This document shows, piece by piece, positions 3,324 through 12,501 of a stretch of DNA of 64,000 nucleotides. Under the pieces are notes generated by a model that was not told where the DNA came from, made no database searches, and saw only the letters and a program-made list of their open reading frames with translations. Source of the DNA: Escherichia coli (GTDB lineage: Bacteria > Pseudomonadota > Gammaproteobacteria > Enterobacterales > Enterobacteriaceae); the NCBI RefSeq assembly GCF_029227855.1, contig NZ_CP074356.1. One strand, 5' to 3'. Numbering within the stretch: the first letter of the stretch is position 1; each line of letters opens with the position of its first letter. The position numbers were made by a program, and so were the translations under genes.

Positions 3324-4802
3324 TTACGCATTCGACCAGCTCTGGATCGAATCCGCATTCCCCAATTCCCCATGCATCACTTCATACGATTTTTTCAGGA
3401 TTACATCAGTATGTTTGGTTAACTCCTTGAAAATGCCTTTATTCATCGCGTTGTAGCGTTTGGCGTTGCTCTCAACAGGCATAAAGATATCTTTCACGCG
3501 AACCATTTTGTCGACAGCCGTTGCGTAATCCGGGTATAGCCCCAGACCTACCGCCGTATTAATCGCTGCCCCCAGGCTTGCACAACCGTTAATGGCGTTA
3601 CGGCGTGCCGGAAGGTTGAACACGTCGGCAAAAATTTGCATAAACAGATCGCTGTTCGAACCGCCGCCAGTAATGATCACATGCTTTGCAAAGTGATTCA
3701 TTTCATGACACATATTGTCGTAATTGTTCTTCAGCGTCAGCGCCACGCTTTCCAGAATCGAACGATATATCCATGCGTAATCCATGCTGGAATCAAAGCC
3801 GATCATAATCCCGCGTTTGTACGGTTCCCACGGATTGGTCAGCCAGTCCAGCACCGTCATCAGACCATTACAGCCTGGCGGCACACAAGACGCTTTTTTG
3901 TTGAGTAAATCTTCCGGTGAAAGATCCTGCGCCCTGGCATCCTGAATTAACGACTCGCCTAGCATGTCGCGCAGCCAGCTCACCGTCCACATGCCTTTGC
4001 GAATACCGTAACCTTCATACAGCAATGTTTGCGGAATAGAAGACATAATCGGCCAGTACGCTACCGGATCTTTCGGCAGTGCTTTGCCGTTCATCATCAA
4101 CGCGATGTAAGTGCCAAGAGAAATTACCGCAGTTTCATCATCCAGTAACCCGGCTCCCAGTGCTTCTACCGGTTTATCACTGGTGGTACAAACAACCGGC
4201 AGCCCAGCTGGGAAATGTGTCGCCAGCGCGGCTTGAGGAGTGATATGCCCAAGAACAGTGCCCGGCATTTGCACATCAAACAGCATATGACGGGGGATAT
4301 TAAACTTCTCCATGACTGCGGCATCTTCACTCCATGCCCAGGTCTTATAATCCACCGGCCACTGACCAAAATAGTTGGCGATATTGTCTTTAAACTCGCC
4401 GGTTAAGCGATGCGTCAGATAACCTGAAAAAGAGGTGACATATGCCACGTCAGGATTCGTATGTTCGTAAGGGCGTGTAACGCGTGCATCCTGCCAGCTA
4501 ATCAACGGCGCAGCTGGCGTGCCATCGGCTTTCAATAACGCACGGCAGCAACGGATGGATCCCAGACCAATACCGACAATATCTTCTTTATTCCCGGCAA
4601 ACTGACTCATCAAATCGTGACCGGCAAAACATAATGATGCCCATAAATCGTCGTCAGGATGTTCTGCGGTATCGGCATCTGGCGTGTGCATCGGCTGCAA
4701 TAAGCCTTTGCCTTCGCAAACCACATTACCTTCCAGATCATACATCACCACTTTTGTGCTCTGACTTCCACCATCAATCCCTATGATGTATTTTTTCGAC
4801 AT
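3324..4802 (-). CDS. ygcE: FGGY-family carbohydrate kinase
   Basis: 492-aa ORF MSKKYIIGIDGGSQSTKVVMYDL...; glycerol/xylulose-kinase-like N-terminus; K-12 synteny (yqcE-ygcE pair). Confidence 0.85.
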   Translation of the reverse strand: MSKKYIIGIDGGSQSTKVVMYDLEGNVVCEGKGLLQPMHTPDADTAEHPDDDLWASLCFAGHDLMSQFAGNKEDIVGIGLGSIRCCRALLKADGTPAAPLISWQDARVTRPYEHTNPDVAYVTSFSGYLTHRLTGEFKDNIANYFGQWPVDYKTWAWSEDAAVMEKFNIPRHMLFDVQMPGTVLGHITPQAALATHFPAGLPVVCTTSDKPVEALGAGLLDDETAVISLGTYIALMMNGKALPKDPVAYWPIMSSIPQTLLYEGYGIRKGMWTVSWLRDMLGESLIQDARAQDLSPEDLLNKKASCVPPGCNGLMTVLDWLTNPWEPYKRGIMIGFDSSMDYAWIYRSILESVALTLKNNYDNMCHEMNHFAKHVIITGGGSNSDLFMQIFADVFNLPARRNAINGCASLGAAINTAVGLGLYPDYATAVDKMVRVKDIFMPVESNAKRYNAMNKGIFKELTKHTDVILKKSYEVMHGELGNADSIQSWSNA

Positions 4803-4828
4803 GATTTTTCTCCTGTAATTTTCTGGAC

Positions 4829-6106
4829 TTACTTGCTGCTAGCCATAGCAGGGGCGCTATCAGCAGTACGAATTTTTTGGAACAGCAAAAAGGTAAAGAC
4901 GATCACCATGGCAAGCGCCGCCATGCCCATCAGCCACATATTGCGGTAGGCTTCTGCAGCGGGCAGGGTGTCTTGCCAGTAGCCGATAATCGAGTAAACG
5001 AAGACATCCGGCAGGAATCCAATCACCGAACAAATACCTACCGTGGTGCCCATAATGTAAGACGGTGTTCTCGCTTCGCCAGGGCAGGCCCAGTACAGCC
5101 CGCGTGAGGCGTAACAGGTGAATCCCAGCAGTAAAATCAGGCCAATCCCCATCGCGACCGATTGCGGGTTAGAGTTCGTGACGAGCAGGGCAGTTAACGC
5201 CAGCAAGCCGAGTACGGAAAGGATTTGGATCACGCGGGTAGGGGATTTCACTTTGCTGTAGGTGGTGATAATGCCGCCAAGTGGGCCGCACAGCGCGCGG
5301 AAGATTTTGTTGATCACAATCCCCATGTAGCTCGCCGCCACCAGCGACATGCCGTACATTTCGGTCAGATAGTTGGTGGAGTAACTCAGAATGGCGTAGA
5401 TGGTGAAGACGCCAAAAATCACCATGCTGCAATACCAGGTGGTGCTGATGCGCAAAACGGCCAGGATGTCGCTAAGCTGGAATGACTGTTTTTCTTCGTT
5501 ATTGGCACTGCGCAGATTGTTGTTATCGCTAACAAAAAACCAGCACAGAATCCCCAACAAGATGTAAACCACACTATAGATGATGATGACCGTTTTCAGA
5601 CTGGCGCTGTCATCCGGAGCGAAGCGAGAAAAGACCCACATGGTAAACACCGCCAGCGACATTACACCGACGCCGCGCAGCCCTTCCATCCAGCCCATAA
5701 TTTTCCCTTGCTCGCTATGATCGCCCAGCAATGAGGCGGCTTTAATCGACACCGACCACAGCATTAAAATAGTGGTTATCGCAAAGGCGACCTGAATACA
5801 GAGCATTACCCACAGCGGTGGATATGTTGCCATTAACAGACCCAGTAATCCGGTAATGATCATCGCGGAAGTAATCATTTTGCGGTGTGAAAATTTATCG
5901 GCAATAACGCCGCTGGGGGCATAAAGAATAATGGCCGCAATACCAAATGTACTCATTATTAAACCTATCTCGGTATTGCTGAATCCCATAAATTTCGCCA
6001 TGGGAATTTGATAAATATAACGTAAATACGCCAGGTCGAAACTAACGCCGCCGCTAAAACTAATTATCGCGAGGGTTATCCAACGGCGATATGAGTTGTG
6101 TTGCAT
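4829..6106 (-). CDS. yqcE: MFS-family transporter
   Basis: Track ORF 4829-6283; start taken at the internal ATG (MQHNSYRRWITLAIISFSGG..., 425 aa) because the upstream extension runs through the leader terminator; multiple hydrophobic helices. Confidence 0.8.
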   Translation of the reverse strand: MQHNSYRRWITLAIISFSGGVSFDLAYLRYIYQIPMAKFMGFSNTEIGLIMSTFGIAAIILYAPSGVIADKFSHRKMITSAMIITGLLGLLMATYPPLWVMLCIQVAFAITTILMLWSVSIKAASLLGDHSEQGKIMGWMEGLRGVGVMSLAVFTMWVFSRFAPDDSASLKTVIIIYSVVYILLGILCWFFVSDNNNLRSANNEEKQSFQLSDILAVLRISTTWYCSMVIFGVFTIYAILSYSTNYLTEMYGMSLVAASYMGIVINKIFRALCGPLGGIITTYSKVKSPTRVIQILSVLGLLALTALLVTNSNPQSVAMGIGLILLLGFTCYASRGLYWACPGEARTPSYIMGTTVGICSVIGFLPDVFVYSIIGYWQDTLPAAEAYRNMWLMGMAALAMVIVFTFLLFQKIRTADSAPAMASSK

Positions 6107-6130
6107 ATCGTATTCCCATTTGTAATAGAC

Positions 6131-6179
6131 AAAAAAAAAGAGAAAAGTAAGCCGCCCTTTCAGGTGGATTACTTTTCTC
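6131..6179 (-). terminator. Intrinsic terminator in the 5' leader of yqcE (11-bp stem GAGAAAAGTAA/TTACTTTTCTC followed by U9 on the minus-strand RNA)
   Basis: Perfect inverted repeat 6140-6150 / 6169-6179 followed on the minus strand by nine U (complement of A9 at 6131-6139), ending 24 nt before the yqcE ATG. Confidence 0.6.
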
Positions 6180-6354
6180 AGGTCTCTAGTAATTGCAATA
6201 AGAAATAACATGGAAAGCAGTGGTGTTGTGTGAGAGTAATCACGCTTCTGCTTTTTAAAATTATTTGACAATTCGAATATCACACTGTGATTACGATCAC
6301 ATTAGCGATTATGCCCTTATGATAAAAATTATCTCCAGTTACCAGAGATAATGA

Positions 6355-6401
6355 GAAAGGTAACTTCCCTCTCGCGGGGGAAGTTACCTTTCTTTTTTTT
6401 T
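6355..6401 (+). terminator. Intrinsic terminator in the 5' leader of ygcW (15-bp stem GAAAGGTAACTTCCC/GGGAAGTTACCTTTC followed by T9)
   Basis: Perfect 15-bp inverted repeat 6355-6369 / 6378-6392, 8-nt loop, then nine T at 6393-6401; the ygcW ATG at 6426 follows 24 nt later, so transcripts must pass the hairpin. Confidence 0.65.
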
Positions 6402-6425
6402 GCCTTACGGAAATTGGAGCTAACT

Positions 6426-7211
6426 ATGTCAATCGAATCTCTCAATGCGTTCTCAATGGATTTTTTCTCCCTGAAAGGTAAAACCGCTATTGTTACCGGC
6501 GGGAATAGCGGTTTAGGCCAGGCATTTGCCATGGCGCTGGCCAAAGCCGGCGCAAATATCTTTATTCCAAGCTTCGTTAAAGATAACGGCGAAACAAAGG
6601 GAATGATTGAAAAACAGGGTGTTGAAGTTGATTTTATGCAGGTGGATATCACCGCAAAAGGCGCGCCGCAGAAGATAATCGCCGCCTGTTGCGAACGTTT
6701 CGGTACCGTCGATATTCTGATTAACAATGCCGGTATTTGTAAGCTGAATAAGGTGCTGGACTTCGGTCGTGCCGACTGGGACCCGATGATTGATGTGAAC
6801 CTGACCGCCGCATTCGAGTTAAGCTATGAAGCTGCAAAAATTATGATCCCGCAGAAAAGCGGTAAAATCATTAATATCTGTTCATTATTCTCTTACTTAG
6901 GTGGACAATGGTCACCTGCATATTCTGCCACTAAACATGCTCTTGCCGGGTTCACCAAAGCTTATTGTGATGAACTAGGTCAATATAATATTCAGGTGAA
7001 TGGTATTGCTCCGGGATATTACGCTACCGATATCACTCTGGCGACCCGTAGTAATCCAGAAACTAACCAGCGCGTTCTTGATCATATTCCGGCAAACCGT
7101 TGGGGCGATACTCAGGATTTAATGGGCGCAGCCGTATTCCTCGCAAGTCCGGCATCGAATTATGTCAACGGACATTTATTAGTGGTCGATGGCGGTTATT
7201 TAGTGCGCTAA
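6426..7211 (+). CDS. ygcW: Short-chain dehydrogenase/reductase (SDR)
   Basis: Track ORF 6351-7211; start taken at internal ATG (MSIESLNAFSMDFFSLKGKTAIVTGGNSGLGQAF..., 261 aa) with GGAG RBS; TGxxxGxG Rossmann motif. Confidence 0.85.
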   Translation: MSIESLNAFSMDFFSLKGKTAIVTGGNSGLGQAFAMALAKAGANIFIPSFVKDNGETKGMIEKQGVEVDFMQVDITAKGAPQKIIAACCERFGTVDILINNAGICKLNKVLDFGRADWDPMIDVNLTAAFELSYEAAKIMIPQKSGKIINICSLFSYLGGQWSPAYSATKHALAGFTKAYCDELGQYNIQVNGIAPGYYATDITLATRSNPETNQRVLDHIPANRWGDTQDLMGAAVFLASPASNYVNGHLLVVDGGYLVR

Positions 7212-7280
7212 TCCATAACGGTGGTTTCTGTTTTCTCTTATTAATGATTATTCCATTTTTATTATCAGGAAGGAATTACT

Positions 7281-8735
7281 ATGTCTTTATCTCGCGCAGC
7301 GATTGTCGACCAGCTAAAGGAAATTGTTGGTGCAGATCGCGTAATTACCGATGAAACAGTATTAAAGAAAAACAGTATTGACCGTTTTCGCAAATTTCCG
7401 GATATTCATGGCATTTATACTTTGCCGATTCCGGCAGCGGTCGTAAAACTCGGTTCCACAGAACAAGTATCCCGTGTGCTGAATTTTATGAATGCGCACA
7501 AAATTAACGGTGTGCCGCGTACCGGTGCTTCCGCTACCGAAGGTGGGCTGGAAACCGTTGTGGAAAACTCGGTGGTGCTCGACGGCTCCGCCATGAATCA
7601 AATCATTAATATTGATATTGAGAATATGCAGGCCACGGCGCAATGTGGCGTTCCGCTGGAGGTGCTGGAAAACGCGTTGCGTGAAAAAGGTTACACCACG
7701 GGGCATTCTCCGCAGTCAAAGCCGCTGGCGCAGATGGGCGGCCTGGTAGCAACCCGCAGTATCGGGCAGTTCTCCACACTCTACGGCGCAATCGAAGATA
7801 TGGTCGTTGGTCTGGAAGCAGTACTGGCAGATGGCACCGTAACACGCATTAAAAACGTACCACGCCGCGCGGCAGGCCCGGACATTCGTCACATCATCAT
7901 CGGCAACGAAGGTGCATTGTGCTATATCACTGAAGTAACTGTGAAAATCTTTAAGTTCACCCCGGAAAACAACCTCTTCTACGGCTATATCCTGGAAGAC
8001 ATGAAAACCGGCTTCAACATCCTGCGTGAAATCATGGTGGAAGGGTATCGTCCGTCGATCGCTCGTTTGTATGACGCTGAAGATGGCACCCAACACTTCA
8101 CCTATTTTGCCGATGGTAAATGTGTGCTGATCTTTATGGCTGAAGGTAACCCTCGCATTGCGAAGGCGACAGGCGAAGGGATTGCGGAAATCGTGGCACG
8201 TTACCCGCAATGCCAGCGAGTGGACAGCAAGCTGATCGAAACCTGGTTTAATCACCTGAACTGGGGGCCGGATAAAGTGGCCGCTGAACGTGTGCAGATC
8301 CTCAAAACCGGCAACATGGGCTTTACCACCGAAGTGTCCGGCTGCTGGAGCTGCATCCACGAAATCTACGAAAGCGTTATTAACCGTATTCGTACCGAGT
8401 TCCCGCACGCCGACGACATCACCATGCTGGGCGGTCACTCCTCTCACAGCTACCAGAACGGTACCAACATGTACTTCGTTTACGACTACAACGTTGTTGA
8501 CTGTAAGCCGGAAGAGGAAATCGACAAGTACCACAATCCGCTCAACAAAATCATCTGCGAAGAAACCATTCGCCTCGGCGGTTCGATGGTGCACCACCAC
8601 GGTATTGGTAAACATCGCGTTCACTGGAGCAAACTGGAACACGGCAGCGCGTGGACGTTGCTGGAAGGTTTGAAAAAACAGTTCGATCCTAACGGCATTA
8701 TGAATACGGGTACTATCTATCCGATTGAAAAATAA
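7281..8735 (+). CDS. ygcU: FAD-linked oxidase (GlcD / alkyl-DHAP-synthase-like)
   Basis: 484-aa ORF MSLSRAAIVDQLKEIVGADRVITDE...; FAD-binding PCMH-type architecture by recalled similarity. Confidence 0.85.
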   Translation: MSLSRAAIVDQLKEIVGADRVITDETVLKKNSIDRFRKFPDIHGIYTLPIPAAVVKLGSTEQVSRVLNFMNAHKINGVPRTGASATEGGLETVVENSVVLDGSAMNQIINIDIENMQATAQCGVPLEVLENALREKGYTTGHSPQSKPLAQMGGLVATRSIGQFSTLYGAIEDMVVGLEAVLADGTVTRIKNVPRRAAGPDIRHIIIGNEGALCYITEVTVKIFKFTPENNLFYGYILEDMKTGFNILREIMVEGYRPSIARLYDAEDGTQHFTYFADGKCVLIFMAEGNPRIAKATGEGIAEIVARYPQCQRVDSKLIETWFNHLNWGPDKVAAERVQILKTGNMGFTTEVSGCWSCIHEIYESVINRIRTEFPHADDITMLGGHSSHSYQNGTNMYFVYDYNVVDCKPEEEIDKYHNPLNKIICEETIRLGGSMVHHHGIGKHRVHWSKLEHGSAWTLLEGLKKQFDPNGIMNTGTIYPIEK

Positions 8736-8827
8736 TGTGTGAGGCAGCGTTCCGCTATGAGGGGCGTTGCCTTTTCGGCTTCTCAGGCGAGAAGCCGTTC
8801 TTATTACCGGACAATGAAGGGGTAAAG

Positions 8828-10165
8828 ATGAACACTTCACCGGTGCGAATGGATGATTTACCGCTTAACCGTTTTCACTGTCGAATTGCTGCGCTCACTT
8901 TCGGCGCGCACCTGACCGACGGTTATGTTCTCGGCGTCATTGGTTACGCCATTATTCAGCTTACGCCCGCCATGCAACTGACGCCGTTTATGGCGGGAAT
9001 GATTGGCGGCTCGGCGCTACTTGGCCTGTTTATCGGTAGCCTGGTTTTGGGGTGGATCTCCGACTATATTGGTCGGCAAAAAATCTTCACCTTCAGCTTT
9101 TTGCTGATTACGCTCGCTTCGTTCTTGCAATTTTTTGCCACCACTCCAGAGCATCTTATTGGACTACGCATTTTGATCGGCATTGGTCTGGGAGGCGATT
9201 ACTCAGTCGGTCACACCTTGCTGGCTGAATTTTCCCCGCGCCGCCATCGCGGTATTTTGCTTGGCGCATTCAGTGTGGTGTGGACCGTAGGCTATGTGCT
9301 GGCAAGTATTGCCGGACATCACTTTATTAGCGAAAGCCCGGAGGCCTGGCGCTGGCTGCTGGCATCAGCGGCGTTACCAGCCTTGCTGATTACGCTGCTA
9401 CGTTGGGGAACGCCAGAATCGCCACGCTGGCTACTGCGCCAGGGGCGTTTTGCAGAAGCTCACGCTATCGTGCATCGCTATTTTGGTCCCCATGTTTTAC
9501 TGGGCGATGAAGTGGCAACAGCGACCCATAAACACATCAAAACCTTGTTCTCTTCGCGCTACTGGCGGCGCACAGCGTTTAACAGCGTCTTCTTTGTCTG
9601 CCTAGTAATCCCATGGTTTGTGATTTATACCTGGCTGCCAACTATCGCCCAAACTATTGGTCTGGAAGATGCGCTGACCGCTAGCCTGATGCTTAATGCG
9701 TTGTTAATTGTGGGCGCGCTGCTGGGATTAGTTCTGACGCACCTGCTGGCACATCGCAAATTTTTGCTGGGAAGTTTTTTGTTGCTGGCGGCAACGCTGG
9801 TAGTAATGGCCTGTTTGCCTTCCGGCAGTTCATTAACGCTGCTGCTTTTTGTTCTCTTCAGCACCACCATTTCGGCAGTCAGTAATCTGGTGGGCATTTT
9901 GCCTGCGGAAAGTTTTCCTACTGACATTCGCTCGCTGGGCGTCGGTTTTGCCACCGCCATGAGTCGGTTGGGCGCGGCGGTAAGTACTGGCCTGCTGCCG
10001 TGGGTGCTGGCGCAGTGGGGAATGCAAGTCACCTTATTGCTCCTGGCGGCAGTGTTGTTGGTTGGTTTTGTCGTGACCTGGCTATGGGCACCAGAAACCA
10101 AAGCACTCCCGCTGGTGGCGGCGGGAAATGTTGGAGGTGCGAATGAACATTCTGTTAGCGTTTAA
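8828..10165 (+). CDS. ygcS: MFS-family transporter
   Basis: Track ORF 8735-10165; start at internal ATG with GAAGGGG RBS (MNTSPVRMDDLPLNRFHCRIAALTFGAH..., 445 aa); polytopic membrane protein. Confidence 0.8.
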   Translation: MNTSPVRMDDLPLNRFHCRIAALTFGAHLTDGYVLGVIGYAIIQLTPAMQLTPFMAGMIGGSALLGLFIGSLVLGWISDYIGRQKIFTFSFLLITLASFLQFFATTPEHLIGLRILIGIGLGGDYSVGHTLLAEFSPRRHRGILLGAFSVVWTVGYVLASIAGHHFISESPEAWRWLLASAALPALLITLLRWGTPESPRWLLRQGRFAEAHAIVHRYFGPHVLLGDEVATATHKHIKTLFSSRYWRRTAFNSVFFVCLVIPWFVIYTWLPTIAQTIGLEDALTASLMLNALLIVGALLGLVLTHLLAHRKFLLGSFLLLAATLVVMACLPSGSSLTLLLFVLFSTTISAVSNLVGILPAESFPTDIRSLGVGFATAMSRLGAAVSTGLLPWVLAQWGMQVTLLLLAAVLLVGFVVTWLWAPETKALPLVAAGNVGGANEHSVSV

Positions 10166-10922
10166 AGCCGAACCGGATGCCGGAATGCTGGCGGAAAAAG
10201 AGTGGCAGGCGGCGGCTCAGGGTAATAGCGGACCGGATGTTTCGCTTCTGCGAAGTTTGCTCGGTGCTGATGAACAGGCTGCCGCCGCGCTGCTGATGGC
10301 GCAGAGAAAAAACGGTACGTCGATGTCTTTAACCGCGTTGAGCATGGGGGATGAACGGGCGTTGCACTGGCTGCGCTATCTTATGGCTCTTGGGTTTGAG
10401 GAAGCTGTATTGCTGGAGACGGCGGCAGATCTGCGCTTTGCGCCGGAATTTGTCGCTCGCCATATTGCCGAATGGCAGAACCAGAATCCGCTGGAGCTGA
10501 TAATTACTGGCTGCCAAAGCAGCGAAGGGCAGAATGGGCAAACGCCATTTTTGCTGGCGGAAATGCTGGGCTGGCCCTGCTTCACCCAGGTGGAGCGTTT
10601 TACTCTCGACGCGCCGTTTATCACCCTTGAACAGCGTACTGAAAACGGGCTGCGCTGTTGCCGGGTTCGCTTGCCTGCGGTGATTGCCGTGCGTCAGTGC
10701 GGTGAAGTGGCCTTGCCAGTACCGGGAATGCGTCAGCGAATGGCGGCGGGGAAAGCAGCAATTATCCGTAAAACTGTTGCTGCCGAATCGCCAGCGATGC
10801 AGTGTCTGCAACTGGCAAGAGCAGAGCAACAACGCGGAGCGACGCTGATTGATGGGCAAACGGTAGCAGAAAAAGCGCAAAAGCTATGGCAGGACTATTT
10901 ACGCCAAAGGATGCAGCCATGA
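10143..10922 (+). CDS. ygcR: Electron-transfer flavoprotein beta-like subunit (FixA-like)
   Basis: Track ORF 10128-10922; start at ATG after GGAGGT RBS (MNILLAFKAEPDAGML...); ETF-beta family by recalled similarity. Confidence 0.8.
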   Translation: MNILLAFKAEPDAGMLAEKEWQAAAQGNSGPDVSLLRSLLGADEQAAAALLMAQRKNGTSMSLTALSMGDERALHWLRYLMALGFEEAVLLETAADLRFAPEFVARHIAEWQNQNPLELIITGCQSSEGQNGQTPFLLAEMLGWPCFTQVERFTLDAPFITLEQRTENGLRCCRVRLPAVIAVRQCGEVALPVPGMRQRMAAGKAAIIRKTVAAESPAMQCLQLARAEQQRGATLIDGQTVAEKAQKLWQDYLRQRMQP

Positions 10923-11779
10923 ATATCGCAATTGTGACAATAAATCAGGAGAATGCCGCAATAGCGAGCTGGCTGGCAGAACAGGATTTCAGCGGTTGTA
11001 CCCTGGCACACTGGCAGATTGAACCTCAGCCCGTAGTGGCGGAACAGGTGCTGGATGCGCTGGTGGAACAGTGGCAGCGAACGCCTGCGGACGTTGTTCT
11101 CTTTCCGCCGGGAACGTTTGGCGATGAACTGTCGACCCGGCTGGCCTGGCGTTTACATGGAGCAAGCATCTGCCAGGTGACTTCGTTAGATATTCCAACC
11201 GTAAGCGTGCGCAAATCCCACTGGGGAAATGCGCTAACGGCGACGCTGCAAACAGAAAAACGCCCGCTATGCCTTTCCCTGGCGCGTCAGGCGGGAGCAG
11301 CGAAAAACGCCACGTTGCCCTCTGGTATGCAGCAACTGAACATTGTCCCAGGTGCGCTTCCCGACTGGCTGGTTAGCATAGAGAATCTGAAAAATGTTAG
11401 CCGCGACCCATTAGCTGAAGCCAGACGGGTGCTGGTGGTGGGGCAGGGCGGAGAGGCAGATAACCAGGAAATCGCTATGCTGGCAGAAAAGCTGGGAGCC
11501 GAAGTGGGCTACAGTCGGGCGCGAGTGATGAACGGTGGCGTTGATGCTGAAAAAGTGATTGGTATTTCCGGACATCTGCTGGCACCTGAGGTGTGTATTG
11601 TTGTTGGCGCTTCCGGCGCAGCAGCGTTAATGGCGGGCGTACGCAATAGCAAGTTTGTGGTGGCGATTAATCATGACGCCAGCGCAACGGTATTTTCACA
11701 GGCAGATGTTGGCGTGGTTGATGACTGGAAAGTGGTGCTGGAGGCACTGGTGACAAACATTCACGCAGAATGCCAATAA
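10919..11779 (+). CDS. ygcQ: Electron-transfer flavoprotein alpha-like subunit (FixB-like)
   Basis: Track ORF 10886-11779; start at ATG overlapping the ygcR stop (MNIAIVTINQENAA...); ETF-alpha C-terminal FAD-binding region. Confidence 0.8.
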   Translation: MNIAIVTINQENAAIASWLAEQDFSGCTLAHWQIEPQPVVAEQVLDALVEQWQRTPADVVLFPPGTFGDELSTRLAWRLHGASICQVTSLDIPTVSVRKSHWGNALTATLQTEKRPLCLSLARQAGAAKNATLPSGMQQLNIVPGALPDWLVSIENLKNVSRDPLAEARRVLVVGQGGEADNQEIAMLAEKLGAEVGYSRARVMNGGVDAEKVIGISGHLLAPEVCIVVGASGAAALMAGVRNSKFVVAINHDASATVFSQADVGVVDDWKVVLEALVTNIHAECQ

Positions 11780-11925: not shown

Positions 11926-12501
11926 TCAAAGCAATTTTTTCGCTAACGTCCAGACCCCGGTATTCGTGGTGGAAAGCGCCACAACACCCGCGTTAATCGC
12001 ATTACGCGCATCTTCTTCATCGCACACCAGCCCGCCGGCAATCAGCGGTTGGCGGATTTTCTCCGTCACCCAGCCCAGCACTTTAGGCATACAGCCTGGC
12101 AGGATCTCAATACAATCCGGATTCGATTGCGCAACTTGCTTATCAATGTTGTGAAACGAAATCGAATCAACAATAAACAGGCGATGAATACAGAAAAAAC
12201 CTTCCGCTCTTGCCGCTTTCAGCATCGATGCTTTCGTGCTGATAATGCCGTCCGCCTCGGTCACCAGTTTCAGAAACTGAATCACCACTTCTTTGTTCGA
12301 TGCGCCTTCCAGCAAATCAACATGAATAAAAGCATATTTCCCGGCGTTCTTAATCTTTTTAACGATATTACTGATGGTGCAGATATTGCCGTACAACACT
12401 GAAATAAACTGGCATTCAGAATCGATTGCCAGTTGCAGGCTGGCATTATCTTTAACGGCAGCAATCACCGGATTCTGGCGGAGCAGGTGTAAGAGGGGCA
12501 T
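11926..12501 (-). CDS. ygcP: GlpP-family (glycerol-3-phosphate-responsive-type) antiterminator homolog
   Basis: 191-aa ORF MPLLHLLRQNPVIAAVKDNASLQLAIDSECQFISVLYGNI...; recalled similarity to the Bacillus GlpP antiterminator family. Confidence 0.8.
   Translation of the reverse strand: MPLLHLLRQNPVIAAVKDNASLQLAIDSECQFISVLYGNICTISNIVKKIKNAGKYAFIHVDLLEGASNKEVVIQFLKLVTEADGIISTKASMLKAARAEGFFCIHRLFIVDSISFHNIDKQVAQSNPDCIEILPGCMPKVLGWVTEKIRQPLIAGGLVCDEEDARNAINAGVVALSTTNTGVWTLAKKLL

Follow-up and report, generated by a model that had tools for sequence, protein, structure and literature searches.

In Bacillus subtilis, the leaders of glpD, glpFK, and glpTQ each have a GlpP site and a terminator in the 5′ untranslated region (UTR) and are antiterminated by GlpP together with glycerol-3-phosphate. 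Deletion of glpP abolishes the induction, and GlpP also stabilizes the glpD mRNA. Here, a related arrangement is described from a 64,000-nucleotide stretch of Escherichia coli DNA (contig NZ_CP074356.1, assembly GCF_029227855.1), hereafter the window, which holds the ygc locus. Two divergent operons of this locus, ygcW-ygcU-ygcS-ygcR-ygcQ and yqcE-ygcE, are each preceded by a short leader with an intrinsic terminator and an overlapping smaller hairpin (P1) that carries two GAG boxes in its loop, and the nearby gene ygcP encodes a protein of the GlpP family. It is likely that YgcP with a bound ligand clamps the P1 hairpin and thereby lets CRP-driven transcription read through the leader terminators. 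The class of mechanism is known from Bacillus, while the assignment of targets to it in E. coli, the arrangement as twin leaders, an explicitly defined RNA element, and the cross-phylum spread of this element with a non-glycerol pathway are new.

The locus shares with the GlpP system the regulator family (PF04309) and the type of target, an intrinsic terminator placed in a short 5′ leader directly past the promoter. The glpD 5′ UTR of B. subtilis (...GGUCCUGAGAUGAGGAGAGACCACAGC...GCUGUUGUGGUCUCUUUUU; PMC9604022) is built like the ygc leaders, with a short GGUC/GACC helix, a loop of GAG repeats (CUGAGAUGAGGAGA), and a 3′ arm with which the terminator 5′ arm begins. As with glpFK, the regulated operons contain a kinase that could make a phosphorylated inducer, here YgcE. 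Unlike the GlpP system, the ygc genes encode an FGGY kinase, a short-chain dehydrogenase/reductase (SDR), a flavin adenine dinucleotide (FAD)-linked oxidase with its own electron transfer flavoprotein (ETF)/FixCX electron path, and two major facilitator superfamily (MFS) transporters, not glycerol genes, and the twin divergent leaders under CRP are a Gram-negative arrangement. All proteins of the ygc cluster were checked, and none reached an NCBIfam equivalog cutoff; equivalogs of glpF, glpK, glpD, and glpT were not found among them (YgcE scores 102 bits against a GlpK cutoff of 590), and the cluster proteins other than YgcE belong to families unrelated to the glycerol genes. The locus would therefore work in a glp-like manner without being a glycerol regulon. 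In Lachnoclostridium and Faecalibacterium, the same element lies between glpP and a gene resembling glycerol-3-phosphate oxidase.

Two other antitermination systems are close in design. In the BglG/SacY/LicT family, of which BglG is the established E. coli case, a protein acting on the ribonucleic antiterminator (RAT) stabilizes a weak antiterminator hairpin whose sequence overlaps with the terminator 5′ arm, much as is proposed here. However, YgcP has no CAT or PRD domains, no RAT-like Rfam match was found in the ygc leaders, and the control of YgcP would be by a small ligand rather than by phosphorylation through the phosphotransferase system (PTS). HutP of B. subtilis is a ligand-activated protein that blocks a terminator by acting on short NAG repeats in the hut leader, and the GAG boxes of the ygc leaders are reminiscent of these repeats. 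HutP belongs to an unrelated protein family, however, and its target has two clusters of three repeats 20 nt apart, compared with two boxes 3-5 nt apart in a hairpin loop in the ygc leaders.

Leader terminators, the P1 hairpin, and leader transcripts

The initial annotation of the window placed an intrinsic terminator in each of the two leaders, and folding bears this out: the ygcW-leader terminator folds at -30.6 kcal/mol (z = -8.9, 200 shuffles) and the yqcE-leader terminator at -20.5 kcal/mol (z = -5.1). What did not stand is the size given for the plus-strand stem, which has 19 pairs and not 15 (Table 1); the first two T of its T9 tract are able to pair at the stem base. The ATG start codons were placed by reading frame, and from them, the claimed 24-nt distance between the end of the T or U tract and the start codon is exact for both operons, whose gene order and orientation are also as first described. 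A promoter between hairpin and ATG was considered and rejected because these 24 nt, which include the Shine-Dalgarno sequence, leave no space for one. A leader peptide or translation-coupled attenuator was likewise rejected because merely ~20 nt precede each hairpin. A scan of the region against Rfam 15 at a permissive E-value gave best matches of at most 26 bits, far under the gathering scores and regarded as noise.

A motif shared by the 5′ arms of the two terminators and the sequence just upstream had been quoted as ACCAGAGATAATGAGAAAGGTAAC and ACTAGAGACCTGAGAAAAGTAATC, and it is present in this form at both leaders. Its core, GAGAAARGTAA, has no perfect match in the 64-kb window apart from these two hairpins, and a covariance model made from the leaders finds the same two sites only, their own reverse strands aside. 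Just upstream, AGUUACY is complementary to RGUAACU in the 5′ arm of the terminator, and their pairing gives P1, the proposed antiterminator, which in E. coli consists of 6-7 bp closing a 14-15-nt loop with the GAG boxes AGAGA-N3-4-GAGAAA. P1 and the terminator are mutually exclusive, as the terminator 5′ arm is made of the P1 3′ arm together with the second GAG box. For the ygcW leader, nascent folding of the 5′ half gives P1 with an energy of -6.7 kcal/mol. The G paired in P1 is, in leaders of the ygcW type, matched by a C in the terminator 3′ arm as well.

The conservation of these structures was assessed in 83 leaders, found by the covariance model at more than 53 bits in 44 loci. The consensus of the element is cAGUUACyAGAGAnnnnGAGAAAAGUAACUUCC-loop-GGAAGnUUrCUUUUCUC-U8-9. 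Across the alignment, the terminator helix is 97.7% paired with six pairs altered on both sides, G-U pairs are tolerated, and the terminator base GAGAAAAG/CUUUUCUC is nearly invariant. P1 is 94% paired, compared with 15-54% when the partner is slid, and three of its pairs are altered on both sides; conservation and covariation in orthologous loci, a check named in the initial annotation, are found for the terminator and also for P1. The two E. coli P1 hairpins themselves differ by G-C to A-U and C-G to U-A swaps. Nascent folding of the 5′ half yielded P1 in 14 of 19 diverse leaders, with 4-9 bp, a 9-18-nt loop, and energies from -1.4 to -10 kcal/mol; in Listeria L063 and L029, outside these 14, P1 is visible by eye and was missed by the automatic cut. 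The pairing of P1 is kept in distant leaders despite different letters: the arms are AGUUGCU/AGCGACU in Listeria, GGUUGCU/AGCGACC in Paenarthrobacter, AGUUGCC/GGCGACU in a metagenome-assembled genome of the Enterobacteriaceae, GUUUC/GAAAC in Faecalibacterium, and GGUC/GACC in B. subtilis glpD.

Both leaders have already been seen as short transcripts. Two RNAs, ecr2774 (73 nt, U00096.2 2898315-2898388, ygcW strand; Table S5) and ecr2775 (63 nt, U00096.2 2898527-2898590, yqcE strand, northern blot), were listed as candidate small RNAs (sRNAs) and classed as "simple stem-loop, perhaps REP-like" (Romero et al., 2014; PMC4681348). When mapped via the K-12 sequence, ecr2774 runs from CUCCAGUUACC (window ~6333) to 5 nt beyond the U tract (~6406), and ecr2775 runs from AAUUACUAGAG (window ~6194) to 1 nt beyond the U tract (~6130); their 5′ ends are 4 nt and 1 nt ahead of P1, respectively. 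The offset from U00096.2 to U00096.3 was taken to be +1978, a value that agrees with the features reached. In a Term-seq study, there is one 3′ end per leader, at K-12 2900311(-) and 2900556(+), with Rho scores of 0.50 and 0.61 (not Rho-dependent), intrinsic-terminator scores of 15.8 for the ygcW leader and 11.4 for the yqcE leader, and 40,640 reads for the ygcW leader in lysogeny broth (LB); neither 3′ end was given a regulatory element (Adams et al., 2021; PMC7815308). From these published ends, it follows that transcription begins ~20 nt before each hairpin and mostly halts there in LB, in agreement with the start sites upstream of the hairpins and the termination at them that had been predicted. 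The published tables give the 63- and 73-nt RNAs without interpretation, and nobody has tied them to YgcP.

Both divergent promoters look CRP-dependent. Footprint-seq gave an in vitro Kd of 1.7 nM for the CRP site TGTGATTACGATCACA, which was also bound in vivo in CRP chromatin immunoprecipitation in enterotoxigenic E. coli and was predicted by PhyloScan; the reports consulted here name just this site, and the second one, TGTGAGAGTAATCACG, is a prediction of the present analysis. The yqcE-ygcE operon is listed as Crp-activated. Of the candidate -10 elements, TAAAAAT is kept at an equal register in the ygcW-type leaders, and the other leaders have a TAnnnT/C hexamer at an equal register, ~7 nt before the A of AGUUAC. 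The P1 antiterminator pairing, the control by CRP, and the presence of the short RNAs in published data sets all go beyond the initial annotation.

Table 1. Features of the ygcW/yqcE leader region and the associated genes (window positions)
Feature	Position	Strand	Description
ygcW leader RNA	6333..6401	+	5′ end ~6333-6335 to U-tract end; ecr2774; covariance model 84.3 bits
yqcE leader RNA	6131..6194	-	5′ end ~6194 to U-tract end; ecr2775; covariance model 84.4 bits
Intrinsic terminator stem-loop, ygcW leader	6353..6394	+	19 pairs, two of them G-U; 5′ arm overlaps second GAG box and P1 3′ arm
T9 tract, ygcW leader	6393..6401	+	ends 24 nt ahead of ygcW ATG (6426)
Intrinsic terminator stem-loop, yqcE leader	6140..6179	-	11 outer and 5 inner pairs
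U9 tract, yqcE leader	6131..6139	-	ends 24 nt ahead of yqcE ATG (6106)
P1 hairpin, ygcW leader (proposed antiterminator)	6337..6365	+	AGUUACC 6337-6343; loop AGAGAUAAUGAGAAA 6344-6358 with two GAG boxes; GGUAACU 6359-6365
P1 hairpin, yqcE leader (proposed antiterminator)	6168..6193	-	AUUACU 6193..6188; loop AGAGACCUGAGAAA 6187..6174; AGUAAU 6173..6168
CRP site TGTGATTACGATCACA (perfect)	6286..6301		centre ~40-42 bp upstream of ygcW leader 5′ end
CRP-like site TGTGAGAGTAATCACG	6229..6244		centre ~42 bp upstream of yqcE leader 5′ end; predicted from sequence
Extended -10-like element TGaTAAAAA, ygcW leader promoter	6320..6328	+	from sequence
-10-like hexamer TATTTC, yqcE leader promoter	6202..6207	-	from sequence
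ygcW operon (regulated)	6426..11779	+	ygcW (SDR), ygcU (FAD-linked oxidase), ygcS (MFS), ygcR and ygcQ (ETF beta, alpha)
yqcE operon (regulated)	3324..6106	-	yqcE (MFS transporter), ygcE (FGGY sugar kinase)
ygcP	11926..12501	-	PF04309 (GlpP-family) putative RNA-binding antiterminator; final gene of ygcN-ygcO-ygcP

The 331-bp stretch around the two leaders, annotated as the spacer of an MFS transporter gene (yqcE) and an SDR gene (ygcW), is shared by 5046 of 5426 complete E. coli genomes. The K-12 annotation has a gene set identical to that of the window. A blastn search of the complete E. coli genomes with a 51-nt piece of one leader missed even the twin leader; this search was too insensitive and is therefore uninformative on a wider regulon.

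Spread of the element and its association with ygcP

The identification of YgcP as a GlpP homolog, made in the initial annotation, was borne out: residues 12-184 of 191 match PF04309 (G3P_antiterm) over the full length of the domain (E = 1.6e-62), and a Pfam scan of the protein gave PF04309 only. In the K-12 annotation, YgcP is already named "putative anti-terminator regulatory protein". It is 55-62% identical to its Firmicute homologs, and the YgcP-like group is 47-62% identical across phyla. Its relatives in the PDB are 3KTS and 1VKF, the family structures being apo structural-genomics entries only, and matches of YgcP-like proteins to 3KTS, the GlpP structure from Listeria monocytogenes, are far weaker (100 bits).

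A scan for YgcP with one genome per species gave 64 loci. Strict regular expressions for the motif missed the Firmicute leaders, and a covariance model was needed; in ~1 Mb of loci, it matched at ygc leaders only. Enterobacterales loci with both ygcW and yqcE have exactly two divergent leaders each, 150-370 bp apart, with one fused exception, and the four loci without a leader match are those that end before ygcW. The exception is Limnobaculum eriocheiris (L032:13872-13963), whose ygcW/yqcE spacer measures 130 bp and has both hairpins fused into one palindrome (A9-hairpin-T9). This spacer lacks the promoter and CRP region, and the locus may therefore be transcriptionally dead. In Citrobacter youngae (L010:16300-16330) and Klebsiella spallanzanii (L011:12650-12690), the yqcE-type leader is followed by ..TATACCCAAAATAATTCGAGTTGC.. 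and in other Enterobacteriaceae by ..GGGAATTCGATATG; there may be an insertion between leader and yqcE in these two species.

Beyond the Enterobacterales, the covariance model placed the element beside ygcP and homologs of ygcU/W/E in Listeria spp., Bacillus sp., Thalassobacillus, Enterococcus, Clostridium sediminicola, Vibrio hannami (where it is also twin and divergent), Paenarthrobacter, and Streptomyces (an AT-rich island in a GC-rich genome). The placement and orientation of the leader relative to the downstream operon are conserved across these phyla. The YgcW and YgcU proteins of E. coli, encoded at window 6426-8732, are 61-78% identical to their homologs in Listeria, Bacillus, Paenarthrobacter, and Streptomyces (L056-L063, L069, L070). 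For a comparison between phyla, this identity is unusually high; enzymes, regulator, and RNA element therefore appear to have moved from phylum to phylum as a unit, and the identity points to a fairly recent horizontal transfer of the whole module. In C. sediminicola, one leader copy lies at the start of the operon (L068:7747-7824), and another full copy with a -10-like TATACT lies inside it, between the FGGY kinase and FAD-oxidase genes (L068:5264-5341). In Paenarthrobacter (L069:8679-8770), the FAD-oxidase as called (534 aa, vs. ~485 elsewhere) begins upstream of the leader terminator, and its start codon was probably called too far upstream.

The element is present in every ygcP locus that holds ygcW/ygcU homologs, the fused copy of L. 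eriocheiris included, and Proteobacteria, Firmicutes, and Actinobacteria all show its co-inheritance with this gene. In the opposite direction, a scan of metagenome contigs with the motif only gave five matches, all in ygc-type clusters; four of these have ygcP, and the fifth contig ends before it could be reached. The motif was absent from three ygcU/W/E clusters without a PF04309 gene within 10 kb (L077, L078, and L079; best score 10 bits with filters off), although YgcU there is 71-73% identical; one of the three has a GntR gene instead. In Serratia microhaemolytica (L045, L076), ygcP stands alone on its own contig, where the flanking 7-10 kb contain neither ygc genes nor the motif, and a complete ygc cluster without ygcP lies on another contig with twin leaders of 85 and 71 bits, which fits a trans-acting factor. 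The ygcP-less clusters L077, L078, and L079 sit among genes of the MTTB (trimethylamine methyltransferase) family, together with a second FAD-oxidase paralog, a neighborhood that may hint at the substrate class of the pathway.

Proposed mechanism and alternative explanations

Two divergent, seemingly CRP-dependent promoters would each yield a leader RNA of ~65-70 nt. The weak P1 hairpin, contained in the first ~30 nt, would form first and by default be displaced by the strong terminator, and transcription would then end 24 nt before the ATG, leaving the abundant 63- and 73-nt RNAs. In the presence of the inducer, loaded YgcP would bind the GAG-box loop and P1 and withhold the 5′ arm of the terminator, and RNA polymerase would read into ygcW-U-S-R-Q and yqcE-ygcE. 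By analogy with GlpK, glycerol-3-phosphate, and GlpP, the inducer would most likely arise as a phosphorylated product of YgcE, the FGGY kinase. The case for a phosphorylated metabolite, as suggested in the initial annotation, comes from the glycerol-3-phosphate precedent of GlpP and from the position of YgcE in a regulated operon.

Several observations speak against this mechanism or narrow its basis. P1 of the yqcE leader is very weak in the nascent fold (-1.4 kcal/mol). The covariation of P1 comprises few independent events, the arms being mostly conserved in sequence, and its backing is therefore moderate. Among the validated GlpP targets, glpD only was compared. The Term-seq 3′ ends (window ~6388 and ~6143) fall short of the U-tract end by 13 and 11 nt, in the A-U-rich base of the 3′ arm; the RNA-seq boundaries, unlike these ends, extend to the U tract, and it was assumed that the ends inside the stem are probably due to 3′ trimming by exonucleases. 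Most loci were fetched via ygcP, which makes co-occurrence in that direction partly a matter of design, and the ygcP-less set is composed of three loci only, in whose genomes ygcP could lie elsewhere. Finally, the literature searched on ygcP, ygcW/yqcE, and the other ygc genes contained no functional study.

The leaders could instead be small riboswitches that sense a metabolite directly, with YgcP having another role or none in their control. This would suit a highly conserved RNA element with two mutually exclusive structures and would dispense with the proposed binding of YgcP to the leader; it is nevertheless unlikely. What varies in the element is very small (4-9 bp around a loop of 14-18 nt), Rfam has no matching family, and the glpD leader of B. 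subtilis, with the same layout, requires GlpP in vivo. As the element follows ygcP and is missing from the enzyme clusters that lack this gene, its distribution favors a YgcP-dependent element over a self-contained riboswitch. Still less credible is the idea that the inverted repeats are DNA operators of a transcription factor, which is very improbable even though near-perfect palindromes flank the promoter region. The GAG-box/P1 half is found 5′ only and the T tract 3′ only, on the transcribed strand; G-U pairs are tolerated in the helix, where the corresponding C-A would break a DNA palindrome; RNA 3′ ends map at the hairpins; and the E. coli ygc cluster contains no gene for a DNA-binding regulator.

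Little probability is also assigned to the hairpins being stand-alone trans-acting sRNAs or stabilizing or insulating elements akin to repetitive extragenic palindromic (REP) sequences, with the downstream genes not regulated. The abundance of the short RNAs in Term-seq and their cataloging as candidate sRNAs, perhaps REP-like, agree with such a role, but each hairpin ends 24 nt before a start codon with no space for a further promoter, and its position and orientation to the operon are held across phyla. Moreover, the hairpin sequence occurs at one place per E. coli genome and is not a dispersed REP-type repeat. A role in trans would, in any case, be compatible with attenuation. A similarly slim chance is given to conditional terminators that answer to something other than YgcP-mediated antitermination, be it another RNA-binding protein, nucleoside triphosphate-sensitive termination at the U9 tract, or an action of YgcP on mRNA stability only. 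The stabilization of glpD mRNA by GlpP is a precedent for the last of these, and other factors are compatible with the data; on the other side, ygcP is the sole regulator gene common to the loci across phyla, and the ~20 nt before the hairpin hold no leader peptide. Antitermination by ligand-bound YgcP is retained as the likely explanation of the ygc leaders, and each checkable element of the initial interpretation was borne out.

The initial annotation knew of no description of the system, and no paper on ygcP or on attenuation at the ygc locus was found in the literature searched. If the antitermination by YgcP is true, BglG is joined in E. coli K-12 by a second protein-dependent system of this type, with a new phosphorylated inducer, and ten adjacent y-genes of K-12 with no known function or regulator gain a concrete, testable switch, in which CRP would set promoter activity while YgcP and its inducer decide the passage of the two leader terminators. 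It would also explain two abundant short RNAs from published RNA-seq and Term-seq tables and suggest a route to the substrate of the pathway through compounds that cause ygcP-dependent read-through. For the family, the conserved element would be the first explicit RNA recognition rule for GlpP proteins as a whole and a candidate for a new Rfam family; its compact form (P1 helix, two GAG boxes, and terminator overlap), common to GlpP-family targets in three phyla, could predict GlpP regulons. The element may be usable as a portable part in synthetic biology, for which the B. subtilis glpD leader is a precedent. It is somewhat more likely than not that YgcP and the double-GAG-box P1 form a portable cassette of regulator and RNA operator, moved among Proteobacteria, Firmicutes, and Actinobacteria together with an uncharacterized pathway of a kinase, an SDR, and an ETF-linked FAD-oxidase.

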